Shown piece after piece: positions 1,680-55,109 of a stretch of DNA of 64,000 nucleotides. Position 1 is the first letter of the stretch. The number at the start of each line of letters is the position of its first letter. The stretch is from Tubiluchus corallicola (taxonomy: Eukaryota; Animalia; Priapulida). The stretch covers positions 186,001 to 250,000 of the forward strand of contig JAQGDQ010000163.1 in the NCBI GenBank assembly GCA_030141605.1, in the 5' to 3' direction. The position numbers and the translations under genes are program-made. The notes under the pieces were generated by a model. The model saw only the letters and a program-made list of their open reading frames with translations, was not told the origin of the DNA and did no database searches.

Positions 1680-2792
1680 TTACAAGCACTCACGATATCT
1701 ACTTTTTAGCTTGGAACATTCAAGATCAAGCGCAGATTTCTTTTCCTTTACAATAATATCTAATTGCGCTTTGGCTTTGGCAATGGTAATGCCATCATGA
1801 AAATGCAATTTTTCTTTTGGAATGTAAATGAAATTGGTGTGCAAAAGTTTTTCGATTCCCAAATCCCTTTCATGTCCTGTTTCAACAGTTTTTGCACTAG
1901 GGACTTCTGAGTTAGTAATTGAATCACTATTGCCTTTCGAAGAAACAAAAGGTAGCTGAATGTCTTTGTCACACAGCATCTGTTTTGGGTTGTTTTTTGC
2001 AGACTGGATTGTGGCTCCATCTATCCACCGCCAGAACAACGATTCTTGCTCTTTCCATTTTAGCAACAGACGTATTTTTCTGTTTTTCTCTTGTAGTGAT
2101 GCTACGTATTTTTCTGCAACGTCCCTTTTCCCTGGGTTAGCAAGCATGTAAGCATGCAGAGGTAACAAGTGAGGTATACCTCGCATGAGCTCCACCCCCA
2201 TAGTCTCCTCATTAATCTTGTGAATCAGTTTCACTTGTTCTTGCACAGCCGCATTGAAATTTTTCATTTCCATTTCCACTCGACCATGAAGCAACATGTA
2301 TCTTTTTGCACTGTCCTTATCACTGGCACTTGGCTCATCAAGAGGCACATCTTCTGTAACTGATAAACTGTCGAAATTTGGCAATAGATCACTCAAGTAC
2401 ATTCTGTCTTCTAAGCATGATTTTGCATACTTTTCAATCAGTCTTTGTTTTAGTATGAACCATCCAAGAGCAAGCACCAGCTCTCGACTACCGCTAGAGC
2501 CATCTGTTGGCAGGTGTTGAAAATTGACACTGCTGTAGCCAAGTTTATGCAAATTTGTCTTGACAAGCTGCACAAGGCATTCACGATCATTGCTATCACC
2601 CACGTCTTCTGCAGCAATTACAATACTACCTACATTCTGAAGCAGCTCGCAAAGCACTGCCCACATCGCCATGGTAACACCACATTCATCATGTTTCGCT
2701 TGTCGCAGCATTTCAGTTGACAGACGACTCTCCTCTAGAAATTCATTTAGGATGTCGCAAAACGTTTCCACTGCTTGCTTAACTTTTGACAT
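1680..2792 (-). CDS. TEDC1: Tubulin epsilon and delta complex protein 1-like (TEDC1/C14orf80), single coding exon, 370 aa
   Basis: Uninterrupted ORF. The N-terminal 'EMLRQAKHD...MWAVLCELL' and 'LGY..F..LPTDGSSGSRELVLALGWF' segments and later 'LLLKWKEQESLFWRWID' match my recollection of TEDC1-family motifs (GSRELLLALSWL; FW.WM). Confidence 0.8.
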   Translation of the reverse strand: MSKVKQAVETFCDILNEFLEESRLSTEMLRQAKHDECGVTMAMWAVLCELLQNVGSIVIAAEDVGDSNDRECLVQLVKTNLHKLGYSSVNFQHLPTDGSSGSRELVLALGWFILKQRLIEKYAKSCLEDRMYLSDLLPNFDSLSVTEDVPLDEPSASDKDSAKRYMLLHGRVEMEMKNFNAAVQEQVKLIHKINEETMGVELMRGIPHLLPLHAYMLANPGKRDVAEKYVASLQEKNRKIRLLLKWKEQESLFWRWIDGATIQSAKNNPKQMLCDKDIQLPFVSSKGNSDSITNSEVPSAKTVETGHERDLGIEKLLHTNFIYIPKEKLHFHDGITIAKAKAQLDIIVKEKKSALDLECSKLKSRYRECL

Positions 2793-2857
2793 GACTTTTT
2801 ATGTAAAACAGCACAATCAGAATTGAAGAACTCACTGACTTTGCATTATGCAATACT

Positions 2858-39200: not shown

Positions 39201-42200
39201 CATAAAACATGTTATACACTTCATTGACAAAATTTTATAATTTATACTGTTGCTTTAGTTGGCAAAGAGGGTGCTATGAATAGTTTGATGTATTTTTCCA
39301 AACTTTATGTAATGTTATCTAAACTTCAAACAACTTACCATTAAAATAGCTGCCCCTATCTTGAGAGTATAAATTGGTTTAAATTTACAAGTTTTACATA
39401 CAGCGTTACTGTTAAAACAAACTCTGCAATCAGACAGCATGTAAGTGACACAAAATTTCAAAACAATTTTTTAAAGCTTTATTTACTAAGTGTACTTTCT
39501 TGTCCTTTGAAAACTTGAAAGCAACAACTCTTGTGCAAAGCAAAGTTCAGCTATTGATAAAAACAGCAGAATTATTATGAATATTGAGTAATATAAAACA
39601 CTGATTGCCAGTCAAATTAATTATCGATCAAAACTTTAAAACGTGAATTTATTTAAAGCAATTCCAGCCATATGCATGGTTTGCAGAAAAAGAAAGCAAA
39701 AAATATGTTGTCATAGTCTGCTGGAACAGGTTAGCGTAAAACTAAAGAACAACAGCATGTTCGAAAAGCCTATGTATAATTGGTTTGTTTTTGTAAATAC
39801 GTGCAATGTAGCATTAATTTATAGAGTTTTAAAAGCCACTTGCAGTTGCTTTTTAACATATTGATGACAACAATGTATAGGTGAATAATGAGCAACCTAT
39901 AATATAGGCAAAAATGTAGGTGAATAATGAGCAACCTATAATATAGGCCAGAATGTAGGTGAATAATGAGCAACGAGCAACCTATAATATAGGCCAGAAT
40001 GTAGGTGAACAATGAGCAACCTATAATATAGGCCAGAATGTAGGTGAATAATGAGCAACCTATAATATAGGCCAGAATGTAGGTGAATAATGAGCAAGCT
40101 ATAATATAGGACAGAATGTAACACATTTTCTCGAAAGCTGTTAATTAATTGCATTAAACTATATATGCGGGTATTTATTATTTATTGTACGTACAAATGG
40201 TAGCATCTTAGCAACACAGTAAAAAAATATCAGTAAAAGTAATTGCTACAAAAATTAGTATTTACCATACAAATTCATATCTCTCAGAAGTAACTGGTCA
40301 AGACTATTAATCAAACAGGTATGACAAATAATTTCAGATAATTACCAGCGTACCTGAGTTCAGCAGCTGAGGAACGGTTTTGAAAACGACTTGCCTTCAT
40401 GTCACATTTCTCCTTTAATGACTTGAGAATATCCTCCCCAAAAGCGAGTGATTTGGAGGTGGTTTCTTTTATCACCTGAAAATGCACAATGTGCTGCTAG
40501 CATCTACTATAATGCATACACAGAAAACTTTGAAAATAATGGTCTGAATTTTTGTGTTTTTCAAGAAAACATAATTCCAAAAGCCAAACGACTCCATGTG
40601 TACGTAATGTGTAACCGTGATCGCTGTCGTCCGAATACGCATCATGCAGCAATACGCTGACAGGAAACTGCTGTTGCCTAGATGATTATAGTGAGTTTCC
40701 AGTTACCATATTTGCTGTTTAGCTTTCTAAAAATTCTAGTTAGGTGAATTTTGGTCACTTGAGGATCTATAAACAATAATATTTTTTTCTATTTGAAGTT
40801 TTGAGAGATGGAAGAAGCATGTTATTATGTGTTGCGCATCTAACTGCAGTATCACTAACGCATGATTGTATTGTTCTCTCCAGAGCAAAATGTTGTGCAC
40901 CAAAAACCTGTGCTTTATTTTGAATTTTTCCGTCTAACGGTAAAATAATAAGCTAATGCTGCAACTGTAATTATCATGCTTATATTTCGAGAGACATGAT
41001 TTCCAAAAATTATTGTTTGCAATTTTCACGAACAGTGACCAAAAATGACGAAAAGAGCAGTGTGGGTTTTGTTAATACGCATAGCGTTTATGAACACATG
41101 AAAACAGTTCAATACGCATTACACATTACGGATCACAGATCACGCATTACACATTACGGATCACAGATCACGCATTACACATTACGGATCACAGATCACT
41201 CGTTACACGAACGTAGCTTTAAGGTCAAAAAATGATAGACACACAAAAAATATTAAAGCAAAAGCTAAGTCTCTTGGGGAGCTGAGCTTATTTTAATATT
41301 TGGGAAAAATGTTAGACAGTTTCAGCAATAAAACTGTGACAAGCATCTCATGTAACTAGTAAAATCAATTTAAAGTCGTGATTACTTTACGCTTGGGCAC
41401 GCTCATTTTAGCGAAAAATGGGGTCATCTGGTTTCGGTGCATTGTAAATTCTTATCCTGCCAAGTGCTTCAGAAACCTTTTTAACCTACAGAGTAAACTC
41501 TATAAACTAAGCAACCAGCCCGGCACCTGCTACATGCTGGCAAGTTCACATGTGTATGTAAAAATCAACAAAAATCTGAAAATTAATTATTTACCCAATT
41601 AATGTTAATTACTTACACATTTTAAGATATAATCCTGCAGATTAAAGCAATGTAACCACAAATTTGATCATAATTGATCGAGTGACTAATTTCTAGAAAA
41701 ACACAGTTAAGCACAACATTAGAATAACGGCAAGTTCTTCTAAGCAAGCTGTAGAAATTTTGCAACGAGTACCTTCATACAACTTGCCTTTACGACATTC
41801 ATGCTGACCAGCAAACACCAGCTTATGTCATTTTTTTGAAATATGCCGGCATCATCGTTCGTTTGGCGGGAAATAAGAAATAAACAAATTTCTTTTACAT
41901 TTTTAAGCAAAGCATTTTATGCACATATTTTGTATTGTGATTTCAGTATTTTTAATTGTGCATTAAAATGCAATAAATGTTGTTCGAGGGTTGGTTCTTC
42001 CTTTAAAGATTTGAGCATCAAAGACACGTTTATGAAACAGGTAACTGAGCACCTAATATTCAAAAAGTGGATTACCAAAAATCGAAAAAAATGACCTCCA
42101 GTTAAGGTATGAAAGCAAAAACTCGGGGCAAAAAGTAAAGTGACCACATTTTAACTTTACCAGTTCTCCCATGTCGCCATGGATACCGTGTCGTAGTAAC

Positions 42201-50249: not shown

Positions 50250-51161
50250 TACTATAATGATTGTGCAAGCAAGTACGCCTGGAATGAGATCCGAGGAGCC
50301 ATAGAGAAGGCATCTCGTCAGGTACAGACTGCTCAAACGATACGGGTGAGCTCCTTATCCTCATAATTAATGAACTAATCTCAATGGGAAAAGATTTGTT
50401 AACCGCAGATTTGGCAAGAATCTCAAATCGTGAGCATCCAAACTCAAACTGATACTGGTTGGACAAAAGCAAGTAAAAAAGCGTCTGCAAATTTTACAAA
50501 AAAGGGAACTGCAAATTTGGCATTACTGGAAAAGGAGCCATGTATGATCATCCCAAGACATATAAAAAACTATTGCAGTATGGGGCTACGTCTTGCAAAA
50601 GGTCAAATTGGGTAGAAAATGTGAAATTTCTTCACCCAAAAATTTGTAAAGATCACATTCTGATGGTATTTGTCTATACCGGAACTGTATCATATGTTCA
50701 CATTAAAGGCACAAAAAGGACAGCTTGATTGCACAAGTCACCTCTAGGATCAATAAGAAAAAGGTTGAAGTTTCCACCAAAGCAAGAAGTCCAGCTGGAA
50801 ACGTGCAAACAGCTCCATTGGATGCCGATGATAATCACACTACAAGCAATCATTTTTTAGAAGTACGGAGTGCTGTTCGTCAGATACAACAGCAAATGCA
50901 ACAAATGCAGACTGCTTTAACTCAAATTGCAGGCATTCAAGCAAGCAAACCAAAGCCTGTATCCCATGGAAATGGACAGGAACAGGAATCCTCAATCACA
51001 ACTAATAAAACAATCTGATATTTGTAATAACTTTGATACTGTCATTTGATTATTTTATTATAGTAACTCTCGTCGTCTTGTTAATAGGAAATCTCAGTTT
51101 GACTTATTGTTAAGTGGTCAGGGAGAATTGCATTAATAACTGAAACTTGGTTTACACATAC
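50250..51161 (+). mobile_element. CR1-like LINE, 5' part: degraded ORF1 (CCCH zinc fingers, coiled coil) and start of the ORF2 endonuclease
   Basis: Frameshifted CKFYKKGNCKFG...CMYDHPKT...FLHPKICKD and Q-rich coiled coil (VRQIQQQMQQMQ), followed by the APE motif ALITETWFTH immediately before the LTR insertion. Confidence 0.65.
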
Positions 51162-51342
51162 TGTTTGGGCTTTCAAAAACCAAATTCGAAGCTCCATTAA
51201 ATTTTGCTGCCAAAACATGTCATTCCATCTAAACATAAGAAATTAGTGCCAAAAAATAACAAATAAACAAAAAATAACAATAGCCAAAAGTCAATTTTAC
51301 ATAATTAAGAGTTATACACTGCACTGTCGTATTAATTAATAC
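51162..51342 (-). repeat. 3' LTR
   Basis: 163 alignable nt with 6 substitutions versus 53319-53502, plus an 18-nt extra segment and a 21-nt gap (manual alignment). Confidence 0.9.
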
Positions 51343-52766
51343 CGAGTTAAATGACCATACCGAGAAGCCTCGTGGTGTGTATAATGTTCGACGCTCGCTT
51401 CAAAACGTCTAATAAAGCGCCAAAAATTCATTACATCGCCGTCGAATTTCTCTAAATCAATTGATGGCAGCTGCATGGCATTATACATTTGCATACGTCG
51501 GCGCTGCCCTTCTAGCATGATGCTCATGACTGCATTTAAGTCAGTTGGATTTGTTGGTGGAGCGGACGTTTTGCCTAAGCGCTTTTCAAAACCAGAAGCA
51601 GCAGGCCAAAATTCGTGAGGCCTAATGTCTGGCATAGCATGAAACTGTGTAGGCCTAAATTCTGTCGACGATTTTGGGACGAAGTCATCTATTGCTGCTT
51701 TCAAGCGGCTATGTTCATTATACGTTTCATAATTAGAACGAGTCTGTTGAAGCGCTGCACATTTATTCTCAGTTTGAAACCCTGGCTCTACTTGATTGAT
51801 GTAATTCCCCAACCAGCGACTAAGCATTTTCGATTCATAATCAGTTGCGCCTGTAGGTGGCGCCACGTGCCTGCAAATTGTACTGAGTATGTTGTCCCAT
51901 GGTTTCCGGGAACCTATAAAGTGAACAACTTTAACATGATTACCAAATTGTTTAACAGCTGGTAAATAACCGTAAGCACCCTTCAAGACAGCATTATATG
52001 CAAAAGGCAGATGTTTATGAAAATCTATAACCCAGGTATTGAAATATAAATTTAACAAGCCCTGGTCCCCGCCGTCAAATGAACTAGCATTCGTCTGTGC
52101 AAACGATACAAGTTTTTCGCAAGTACTTAGACTAGGCCTAAATACAAACACCCCACTATTAAAGCAGTCGGCCCACCCGACATCTGGAGCAGCAGAGAGC
52201 TCCTCATAATTGAACATATCATCAATGTTACTTAATACTAACGTATCCGAGTCCATAAATACACATTTACTGAACTGAGTTAACTGCCAACAGTGTAACT
52301 TAGTAAATGTAACATTTAACTCTGGCCTACCTAATAAAAGTAGATTTTCAGTATCATGACTATCAATCAAATTTACATACTTAACATAATCAAATTTATT
52401 TTTAAGTTGCTCTACTGCAACGTGAGAAACCTCTTTTGTGATCATCACAACCAAGCGACGCTTCGTTTTAACCTCCCGTAGACTGCATGCCAGCACCAGT
52501 GCTCCTAATGCGTACTTGTCGTTTGTGACCAAGGTAACGAAGGCTTCTTTTAAGCAGCTCTGTTCCTCCTTAGGTGTGATTTCATTTGAAACCTCGTTTG
52601 CAAGGACGTCGGTTGTCTGTAACCAGTCAGCTACCTTCTGTTTACAGCTTTCACCAGCAGATGGCGCCACATCCTGCCTGGACTCAACCTCGTCGTGACT
52701 GTCGTCGTCATTAGCACCACCAACTGTAGCCATCTCTACCTGCAGGCGTTCGTGTCTCAGCTTCAT
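51336..52766 (-). CDS. Gag-glycogenin chimeric ORF (476 aa from first Met; frame open from ~52910)
   Basis: GT8/glycogenin ~52547-51790: EAFVTLVTNDKYALGALVL, FTKLHCWQLTQFSKCVFMDSDTLVLSNIDDMF, ELSAAPDVGWADCFNSGVFVFRPS, SFDGGDQGLLN, HLPFAYN, AYGYLPAVKQFG, VVHFIGSRKPW. Gag-like flanks on both sides; the stop codon is supplied by the LTR. Confidence 0.85.
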   Translation of the reverse strand: MKLRHERLQVEMATVGGANDDDSHDEVESRQDVAPSAGESCKQKVADWLQTTDVLANEVSNEITPKEEQSCLKEAFVTLVTNDKYALGALVLACSLREVKTKRRLVVMITKEVSHVAVEQLKNKFDYVKYVNLIDSHDTENLLLLGRPELNVTFTKLHCWQLTQFSKCVFMDSDTLVLSNIDDMFNYEELSAAPDVGWADCFNSGVFVFRPSLSTCEKLVSFAQTNASSFDGGDQGLLNLYFNTWVIDFHKHLPFAYNAVLKGAYGYLPAVKQFGNHVKVVHFIGSRKPWDNILSTICRHVAPPTGATDYESKMLSRWLGNYINQVEPGFQTENKCAALQQTRSNYETYNEHSRLKAAIDDFVPKSSTEFRPTQFHAMPDIRPHEFWPAASGFEKRLGKTSAPPTNPTDLNAVMSIMLEGQRRRMQMYNAMQLPSIDLEKFDGDVMNFWRFIRRFEASVEHYTHHEASRYGHLTRY

Positions 52767-52813
52767 GGCCTGAAGTTTGAGTTCCTGTTCACGAATTTTC
52801 AGCTCCTGACTCT

Positions 52814-53146
52814 TCAGCCTTTTGCACTGTCTTTGCTGCCTTTGCGCATGGACGTGGTAGATGTTCTTAAAACACCTGCAGAAATTGAAGCTGCAACAGT
52901 AGCACGCCCGTCATCAGTGCCAGTTTGCCGTGCTGACGACTCTTTAAAACCGACTGTCTCTATACCACCGGGCTGACCGTGTGCACCAGCTAATTTACTG
53001 AAGCCAGGCTCTCCAAGCTCAGACTCCAAAACTCGCCGCACCAACTCTGCTTTACTACCAGCTACTATCAAGCCTTTTTGGCGTAAAATTGTTCGCATTT
53101 GTTCAACAGTTTTATTTTTTAACTCTAGCTCTCTTTGTTGATACAT
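52814..53146 (-). CDS. SAP-domain N-terminal gag segment (110 aa), one base out of frame with the downstream ORF
   Basis: LKNKTVEQMRTILRQKGLIVAGSKAELVRRVLE fits the SAP consensus (L..LTV.ELK..LK.RGL...G.KAELI.RL.E). Confidence 0.75.
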   Translation of the reverse strand: MYQQRELELKNKTVEQMRTILRQKGLIVAGSKAELVRRVLESELGEPGFSKLAGAHGQPGGIETVGFKESSARQTGTDDGRATVAASISAGVLRTSTTSMRKGSKDSAKG

Positions 53147-53318
53147 TGTCTTGTTTTTCTCAGGCCTAGAAAGATCTGGCTATGCGTTGAAGTAAAAACC
53201 TTCCTATATGCAAAGTAGGTTCACGCACCAACCTATAGCATACTACGCTGTCCACGTAGGCCAACTGTACAAAACGGCTGTCGAGCTCGTTGATTGTCAA
53301 GGTCGTTTAACATGGAAT

Positions 53319-53503
53319 TGTTTGAGCTTTCAAAAACCAAATTCGAAGCTCGATTAAATTTTGCTCTTTCTTTGCTCTTTTTATTTGCCAAAACATGTCA
53401 TTCCATCTAAACATAAGAAATTAGTGCCAAAAAATAACAATAGCCAAACGTCAATTTAACGTAATTAAGAGTTATACACTGCACTGTCGTATTAGTTAAT
53501 ACA
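53319..53503 (-). repeat. 5' LTR
   Basis: On the - strand begins TGTATTAAC and ends CTCAAACA; contains TATAA (~53472-53476) and AATAAA (53380-53385). Confidence 0.9.
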
Positions 53504-54960
53504 TAGCTGTTATTTTAAACTAAATTAAAATTTTTTTAAAGTAATTAGAGGACATACATACGTTATTATTCCCAAATCATGAGCAATTGTAACAGATAAC
53601 GACAATACCTTATCAACCAAGGCATTTGTTTCGATGTTAATGTTGTAGAATCTGTTACTATGTCTGACCATTCAGCAGTTGTCTTTGAATGCCAAGACCC
53701 ATTGTACACTAATGCGTAGACATTGTGTAAAATCCGTAACTACCAGAATGCAAAATGGGACACAATTGGGCGTCAACTATCTATTGTTAACTGGCACAAT
53801 ACTTTTGATTCCTGTGCTTCCGTACAAAGTTTGTAGGAAGGACAGGTTCTACAACATAATCAATGAAGCCATTGACAACAACGTTCCCTGCATGGTATTG
53901 TCTAGCATGCATAAAGGTAAAAGGAAACATAACACTAATTACCCTCCTTACCTGAAACGCATAATCGATAAGAAGCGCAAGCATTGAGCATGTAAATTCA
54001 AAACGTAATAATTCTGCTGAAAATAAGAAAGAATACACCGCTCTGAATAGCAAATTTAAAAAAGAATCATATAAGTTAGCTACTCGTGAACACAGAGTTT
54101 TAGCTAGTAATGATCGTAACAAATTGTTTAAGTACATTCGTAGAACAAGATGTAATGATAATGGCATAGCACCATTAAAAGATAAGCAAGGTAACATTGT
54201 TGTTGCTGATCTAGAATTAGCTAATTTATTAAATGACTGTTTTAGTGACTGTCATTACAATCTTTGAATTTTTCACCTGTTTCTGTCCGTAAAGCCATTC
54301 AAAAAATTAAATCTAAAAAAGTTGTACGCCTGACAGTTTACCAGCCATTGTTTTTAACCAGTTGATTGATATAATCTGTTTACCTTTATCAATGCTTTTT
54401 AAAGTCTCTTTTAGTCAAAGCAGCCTCCCATATGAATGGAAAGTAGCAGATGAAGTACCCATAATAAAAAGGGAAAGTTCCGACCCGAGCAACTGTAGAC
54501 GTACTTCTCTTACTTACATCTCATGTAAAATCATGGAAATTTGTGTTTGTACAGAGATGCTAGCATTTCTTAATAGGCATAACTAAGTACCAGCATGGGT
54601 TTCTATCAAAACATTCAGGATGCACACACTTGTTAGAATCAATTTACGATTGGACTGTTGCTTTAAATGACAAAACATAAGTTGATATTATATATATTGA
54701 TTTAAAAAGCTTTTGGTTCAGTTAGTCACTGCCTACTGCTAGATTGGATTAAAAGTTTTTTAACAGGGTGCTTACAAAAAGTTGTTATTGGTAGTAGTTC
54801 TAATTATGTACAAGTAACTTCAGGAGTAGCTCAGGGCAGCCTCCTGGATCCTTTACTGTTTATGTTATTTGTAAATGATCTGCCTGATGTCATTGGTAGT
54901 ACTCATTGTAAACTATATGCAGATGGTGTAAAATTATATCACTGGGCTGACACTGGCAAT
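53504..54960 (+). mobile_element. CR1-like LINE, degraded ORF2 (end of endonuclease and RT)
   Basis: VESVTMSDHSAVVF (APE SDH), LPYEWKVADEVPIIK...SNCRRTSLTYISCKIME, QHGF, YIDLK, VTSGVAQGSLLDPLLFMLFVNDLPD...KLYADGVKLY; many stops and frameshifts. Confidence 0.88.
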
Positions 54961-55109
54961 GATAATATTGCCATTGATACACATTATCAAGGATGATCAT
55001 TATTGTGATGATCATTTACCATAATTTTGCACTTATATTATTAATATTGCTTTTTAACTGCCTTGTCGCTTATGTACTGTACTTTGAAGATTACGAAATA
55101 AGTAAAAAA

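Follow-up and report, generated by a model that had tools for sequence, protein, structure and literature searches.

The capture of genes by LTR elements is known, and the cargo usually decays or is regulatory. Template switching during reverse transcription is a route for animal LTR retrocopies, which, in the available text of Tan et al. (PMC5131818), comprise partial host coding sequences within LTR elements, occur in multiple copies and are mostly young (<1% diverged) or decaying; one of them sits in a mosquito BEL element. The giant elements Burro and GYPSM1 of planarians contain host-like domains in frame within the polyprotein, which are of apoptosis, ubiquitin, dUTPase and env types in the available part of the review that describes them (PMC6431247), and the word stem 'glycosyl' is absent from that review. 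The third related system, eBxnv-1, is a nodavirus polymerase in a Bel/Pao element. It is described as foreign coding sequence that keeps its catalytic residues, forms a separate ORF without gag and is essentially single copy (PMC5177903, as far as its available text goes).

The locus reported here resembles each of these systems in part. Like the LTR-mediated retrocopies, it carries a partial host coding sequence in an LTR element of several copies; in contrast to them, copies that are 12–14% apart keep an in-frame enzyme domain in Gag. The domain lies in frame within a polyprotein as in Burro and GYPSM1, but those are gypsy and not BEL/Pao elements. Whereas the cargo of eBxnv-1 is viral, a host metabolic enzyme is fused into Gag here, in several diverged copies. 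Compared with animal glycogenin-1 (rabbit and human GYG1), the domain is alike in fold, metal and substrate residues, acceptor tyrosine and dimer contacts according to the alignment, and it shares 55–60% identity with the best animal glycogenin matches. However, it has no synthase-binding tail, nearby start codon or introns, and it is embedded in Gag.

No prior description of a glycogenin in a retrotransposon was found in the literature, subscription papers and supplements aside. Three homologue searches (best 120 of 2383, of 243 and of 613 matches) returned no second fusion, with no protein listed as bearing retroelement domains and none above 64% identity, and a gag profile matched 0 of these 360 homologues, the collections holding few animal genomes. 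The top homologue is a glycogenin model from a catfish in which ~100 residues are duplicated internally, probably an annotation artefact. Of 82 loci with a glycogenin-like gene (2 viral, and 80 retained from 261 metagenome matches), none had BEL sequence, in collections with few animal genomes, and the ORF product had no match among viral and metagenome contigs, collections that are likewise poor in animal genomes. For poorly sampled animals, the absence of a second case is weak evidence.

The window is the whole 64-kb stretch of AT-rich eukaryotic DNA that was analysed. Animal-type genes are present in it, for example a homologue of TEDC1 (tubulin epsilon and delta complex protein 1) in a long unbroken frame (1680–2798, minus strand; E 1.7e-31), and a tandem array of ~39-nt units lies at 39839–40136. 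The main ORF of the gag-glycogenin block contains 524 codons (51336–52910, minus strand). The block and its surroundings are composed of the following features:

50477–51160, plus strand: decayed LINE-like element that the block interrupts, left part, with a CCCH-finger-like remnant of ORF1 (weak zf-CCCH match, E 0.012, below cut-off)
51162–51342, no strand assigned: high-copy dispersed repeat, partial copy, which adjoins the truncated gag
51343–51779, minus strand: linker derived from host or gag as far as about residue 410, followed by BEL/Pao Gag that breaks off at the first part of the DUF1759 region
51780–52550, minus strand: glycogenin (GT8) catalytic domain, intronless, ORF residues 121–377 (Pfam, phmmer, structure model)
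51972–51974, minus strand: acceptor tyrosine Y313, human Y195 by alignment
52059–52079, minus strand: FDGGDQG motif with D279, D282 and Q283, human D160, D163 and Q164 by alignment
52245–52253, minus strand: DxD metal-binding motif D220-S221-D222, human D102-A103-D104 by alignment
52551–52910, minus strand: Gag coiled coil and acidic linker, in the same frame as the glycogenin domain (weak collinear match of 4.7 bits, gag-relative profile)
52814–53179, minus strand: Gag N-terminus with the SAP domain (53024–53122) (ORF list; Pfam SAP E 1.2e-06)
53319–53620, no strand assigned: second, longer copy of the high-copy repeat (match to the first copy 53319–53502, right end approximate)
53640–54996, plus strand: decayed LINE-like element, right part, a reverse transcriptase remnant (RVT_1 E 5e-05 at 54706–54993, below cut-off)

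A first-pass annotation had described a captured glycogenin catalytic domain inside gag that retains its catalytic residues and acceptor tyrosine, and this description is borne out by Pfam, phmmer and alignment. The ORF product matches Pfam GT8 at E 8.6e-21 and, in a phmmer search against solved structures, rabbit glycogenin-1 at E 2.5e-83. The AlphaFold model (pLDDT 84.4, pTM 0.87) can be superimposed on rabbit glycogenin crystal structures with TM values of 0.88–0.89; Pfam, phmmer, model and overlay all point to the GT-A Rossmann fold of glycogenin type. Every motif named in that annotation was found in its place within the main ORF: TKLH (52304–52293), DSD (52253–52245), FNSG (52163–52152), FDGGDQG (52079–52059), VVHF (51929–51918) and KPW (51905–51897). 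In the alignment, D220, D222, H330 and K204 correspond to human D102, D104, H212 and K86, and the equivalents of the metal ligands, Lys86 and Asp160/Asp163/Gln164 are all kept (D220, D222, H330, K204, D279, D282 and Q283). For some of these residues, the role is implied by PDB titles. DSD is an unremarkable variant, replacing DAD in 4 of 240 host glycogenins. The tyrosine of GAYGYLPA, ORF residue 313 (51974–51972), is aligned by phmmer with the first tyrosine of the mammalian acceptor arm, and the acceptor-arm residues around it differ from those of hosts. W246, D279, Y313 and Y315 align with W128, D160, Y195 and Y197, which form dimer contacts in glycogenin, Y195 also being the self-glucosylation site (PMC12267440, available text).

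The tail that binds glycogen synthase is present in 227 of 239 host glycogenins and is missing here, as the annotation had reported. Its C-terminal motif has no match in the six frames of the window. A tail HMM built from those 227 of 239 sequences scores −1.8 bits on ORF residues 377–524, a score reached by 421 of 1000 shuffles; as a control, it scores >20 bits in 5 of 12 held-out hosts. An apparent register match of residues 387–403 to the host tail was forced by the aligner and was ruled out by the HMM and a PSSM against shuffles. Because the tail is lacking, the captured sequence is a glycogenin catalytic domain and not a complete glycogenin. Its homology to glycogenin extends to about 51780, compared with the end of 51790 given previously. 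In glycogenins, the linker 3´ of the catalytic domain is poorly conserved, and synthase binding needs the tail (PMC8203840, available text). Residues ~378–410 may therefore derive from either the host linker or gag, and the position of the 3´ capture point is correspondingly uncertain. The coincidence of the capture boundaries with those of the domain, as stated earlier, reflects in part the limits of detection, because the domain is where glycogenins start on the 5´ side and the linker after it is the poorly conserved one. The nearest Met is 60 codons upstream of the glycogenin domain, which would thus be translated solely within Gag.

The last 183 ORF residues match 34 proteins, of which 16 contain DUF1759, two are whole Pao polyproteins and none contains GT8. 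A profile of 28 gag relatives aligns strongly to residues 370–524 and weakly but in order to residues 36–108. Because gag aligns on both sides, the enzyme domain is placed within the variable linker that joins the coiled coil to DUF1759. The ORF product is cut too early to score DUF1759 itself, and a BEL/Pao Gag with a DUF1759 region is supported via the relatives; judged by its gag sequence, the element is BEL/Pao. The SAP domain (53024–53122, minus strand) lies at the Gag N-terminus, and SAP scored in 0 of the 34 gag relatives, many of which are partial. Animal glycogenin genes have introns. Here, one open frame contains gag sequence on both sides of an intronless glycogenin domain, as is typical of an LTR-mediated retrocopy. 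No pol domain (protease, RT, RNase H/Peptidase_A17 or integrase) was found in the window, and tblastn with three long relatives finds the gag piece alone. A word that resembles a tRNA-His primer-binding site lies at 53218–53230 (minus strand), ~80 nt ahead of the point where the SAP frame has its first Met.

The window copy is a broken relic of its family, and its private changes affect conserved sites. The SAP start and the main ORF are read in different frames, so that the gag frame is broken where the two overlap (52814–52910). The gag ends at 51343, at the start of the DUF1759 region, against the high-copy repeat, and no LTR was found for this copy. The repeat flanks the gag fragment on both sides in direct orientation; its summed contig depth, which is not taken as copy number, is ~35,000 versus ~200 in the flanks. 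A 14-nt palindrome marks the exact end of the left repeat copy. The flanking direct repeats were considered as an LTR pair and set aside in view of their high copy and their position against the cut gag; the repeat is probably not the LTR of the element, and the inner short inverted repeats are uninformative. The whole block separates the two halves of a LINE-like element that has decayed (weak matches; endonuclease-like motifs read by eye). Since it appears to replace the middle of the LINE endonuclease region, it may stem from a DNA-level rearrangement and not from a clean insertion.

The domain of the window copy departs from the consensus at 11 of 113 conserved sites. The 119 hosts average 2.0 such departures and reach at most 9, so that the domain is more diverged at these sites than any host. 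Eight of the 11 departures (residues 128, 166, 221, 235, 276, 297, 314 and 370) show no reverting row in other copies and may be family-wide, a number at the top of the host range. At residues 232, 247, 264, 367 and 369 the window copy departs, while other copies carry the host-typical residue.

These other copies were compared via aligned contigs from five of six listed sequencing runs, of which X2, X4 and X5 belong to different studies. Run X2, which may be the source sample of the window DNA, contains at least three glycogenin-bearing versions: that of the window, a near version (~95% identical, three listed indels in the domain) and a distant version (50 differences and 21 gap letters over 357 nt). 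Both of the non-window versions are frameshifted, so that every X2 version is damaged. Run X4 provides gap-free pieces of ~96–97% identity, one of which bridges the downstream junction (51600–51908, 12 differences, 0 gaps). Run X5 covers both junctions, the upstream one with a piece at 52358–52802 (62 differences, 0 gaps, 86% identical) and the downstream one with a piece at 51748–52292 (64 differences, 0 gaps, 88% identical). In total, 990 nt from X5 are free of frameshifts at a divergence of 12–14%, in a comparison that scores gaps and in which stop codons are not visible. The X5 copy has a 78-nt gap at 51669–51748, in the linker after the domain. X5 bears the same species label; near-identical pieces (≥99%) number 1 of 202 in it, and it may represent a distant population or a sister species. 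The gag-glycogenin fusion is real, shared and not a one-off. An intact, LTR-bounded, pol-bearing member was not seen among the contig copies.

Two further contigs occur in both X2 and X4. One copy departs from gag at 52572, which is eight codons short of the domain, and continues into >250 nt of unrelated sequence; it may be a glycogenin-free relative and candidate parent, or a separate insertion. The other is a short contig at 52287–52333 from a glycogenin that is far more diverged, and its loose ends are identical in the two runs. Read by eye, these ends are in-register glycogenin in which 8 of 19 flanking codons differ. If this contig, a candidate, is the host gene, the capture would therefore be old.

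Signs of selection were scored on the best-supported 40 of 234 difference rows; 39 were used, and one in the frame-broken part was excluded. Domain changes that are private to the window copy, relative to three other sources, number 4 synonymous against 6 non-synonymous, or 6 against 12 when the rule is relaxed, which is compatible with a neutral synonymous share of 0.21–0.29. In contrast, the differences common to the distant X2 copy and X5 are synonymous at 5 of 5 domain sites (P about 0.002). Subfamily and private changes in the domain differ with a Fisher P of 0.04 under the strict rule and 0.014 under the broad one. The common differences are also synonymous at 3 of 3 gag sites, where the gag contig is tied to the distant copy by depth alone. 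The first-pass annotation had named substitutions scattered at random over conserved sites as evidence against its reading; such a pattern fits the private changes, which look unselected, but not the subfamily changes (5 synonymous, 0 non-synonymous). The broken X2 copies contain ~7 indel events for every 92 substitutions, a rate that includes one unlisted event deduced from the gap totals, so that ~9.6 would be expected in the 126 substitutions of X5, and none is observed (Poisson 7e-5). Changes in the domain affect 1 of 52 invariant columns versus 75 of 99 variable ones. In a quick tree of 105 rows, the end branch of the domain is 1.27 versus a median of 0.2, and the domain falls at no settled point among spiralian sequences, without a supported sister.

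These comparisons suggest that the family has likely kept the domain under purifying selection, a claim carried by five domain sites from the best-supported 40 of 234 rows. The long branch could predate the capture and belong to the host lineage, and folding constraint inside Gag could mimic catalytic constraint and explain part of the signal. We lean towards the reading that this is a BEL/Pao family with an intronless glycogenin in the linker of its Gag, captured by template switching and kept by purifying selection as a domain predicted to glucosylate itself, of which the window copy is a relic. The reverse transcriptase would have switched from the element RNA to the host glycogenin mRNA and then back, a route that fits the locus because introns are absent and gag lies on both sides.

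The most serious competitor, to which we give an appreciable though clearly lesser probability, is a passenger capture, in which the domain was tolerated merely because it is open and folded and leaves Gag unspoilt, or in which the element is non-autonomous and copied in trans; catalysis would then have no role. LTR-mediated retrocopies are common in animals, re-amplify non-autonomously and are often in frame when young, yet 14 of 21 older ones had lost function (PMC5131818, available text). The damage to all X2 versions, the small number of copies and a divergence at conserved sites beyond that of all 119 hosts are in keeping with a passenger. Against it, the frame is kept over 990 nt between copies 12–14% apart, and the surface catalytic and acceptor residues are all kept despite the very long branch.

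It is unlikely that a single fixed Gag-glycogenin locus was domesticated as a chimeric gene serving the host, with the other copies, that of the window included, being its dead offspring. Such a gene would be consistent with the gap-free X5 version and its host-typical residues, and two constrained LTR-borne retrocopies are described, in zebrafish and chicken (PMC5131818, available text). However, the gag part is likewise biased towards synonymous changes (3 of 3), and two subfamilies coexist in one genome, as a transposing family predicts.

Slightly more doubtful still is that the fusion interferes with the glycogen metabolism of the host, either by pairing with host glycogenin in a dominant-negative manner or as a decoy primer. 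The dimer-contact residues are kept, and non-glucosylated glycogenins that are bound to synthase lower synthase activity (PMC12267440, available text). That reported suppression by inactive glycogenins runs via synthase binding and hence needs the missing tail, which makes the dominant-negative role proposed in the first-pass annotation unlikely and leaves it without support. An intact active site with its tyrosine would moreover be a poor dominant negative, the window copy cannot make the whole protein, and no benefit to the element is evident. An assembly chimera or a one-off processed-pseudogene insertion is highly improbable because the junctions are spanned by diverged contigs that come from two further studies, even though no single contig spans the block.

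Under the preferred reading of a selected Gag-glycogenin family, an intact fusion protein would dimerise through the domain as Gag multimerises, and multimerisation is predicted to favour the dimers. The fusion would glucosylate its own tyrosine with cytosolic UDP-glucose, which would place short glucose chains on Gag, and without the tail it would not be tethered to glycogen synthase. Proteins that bind glycogen could be drawn to Gag particles by such chains. When isolated, the human catalytic domain occurs in mixed glucosylated states, and its chain mediates binding to the PP1-targeting subunit PTG in the absence of synthase (PMC9287172, available text). A product that makes short chains uncoupled from synthase, as first proposed, is plausible because the human domain is glucosylated in this way; the proposal does not extend to the window copy, in which the SAP frame is off, gag ends at 51343 and 11 of 113 conserved sites depart. 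More speculatively, and with limited confidence, retrotransposon particles may glucosylate themselves and show maltosaccharide primers, and thereby pass as or dock on glycogen granules, recruit proteins that bind glycogen (PP1-targeting subunits, for example) or ride with glycogen stores into oocytes.

What is unusual about this family is the cargo, its position in Gag and a hint of long retention, set against a dead window copy and a selection signal on few sites. If that signal fails, the fusion is an ordinary though tidy retrocopy. The gag-glycogenin represents a natural test of a glycogenin without its synthase tether. If the proposed self-glucosylation is true, a mobile element would decorate its own capsid with carbohydrate via a captured host enzyme. 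If kept in frame across diverged copies, a carbohydrate-priming enzyme in Gag would be a new type of accessory function, which would tie transposon particles to glycogen biology.
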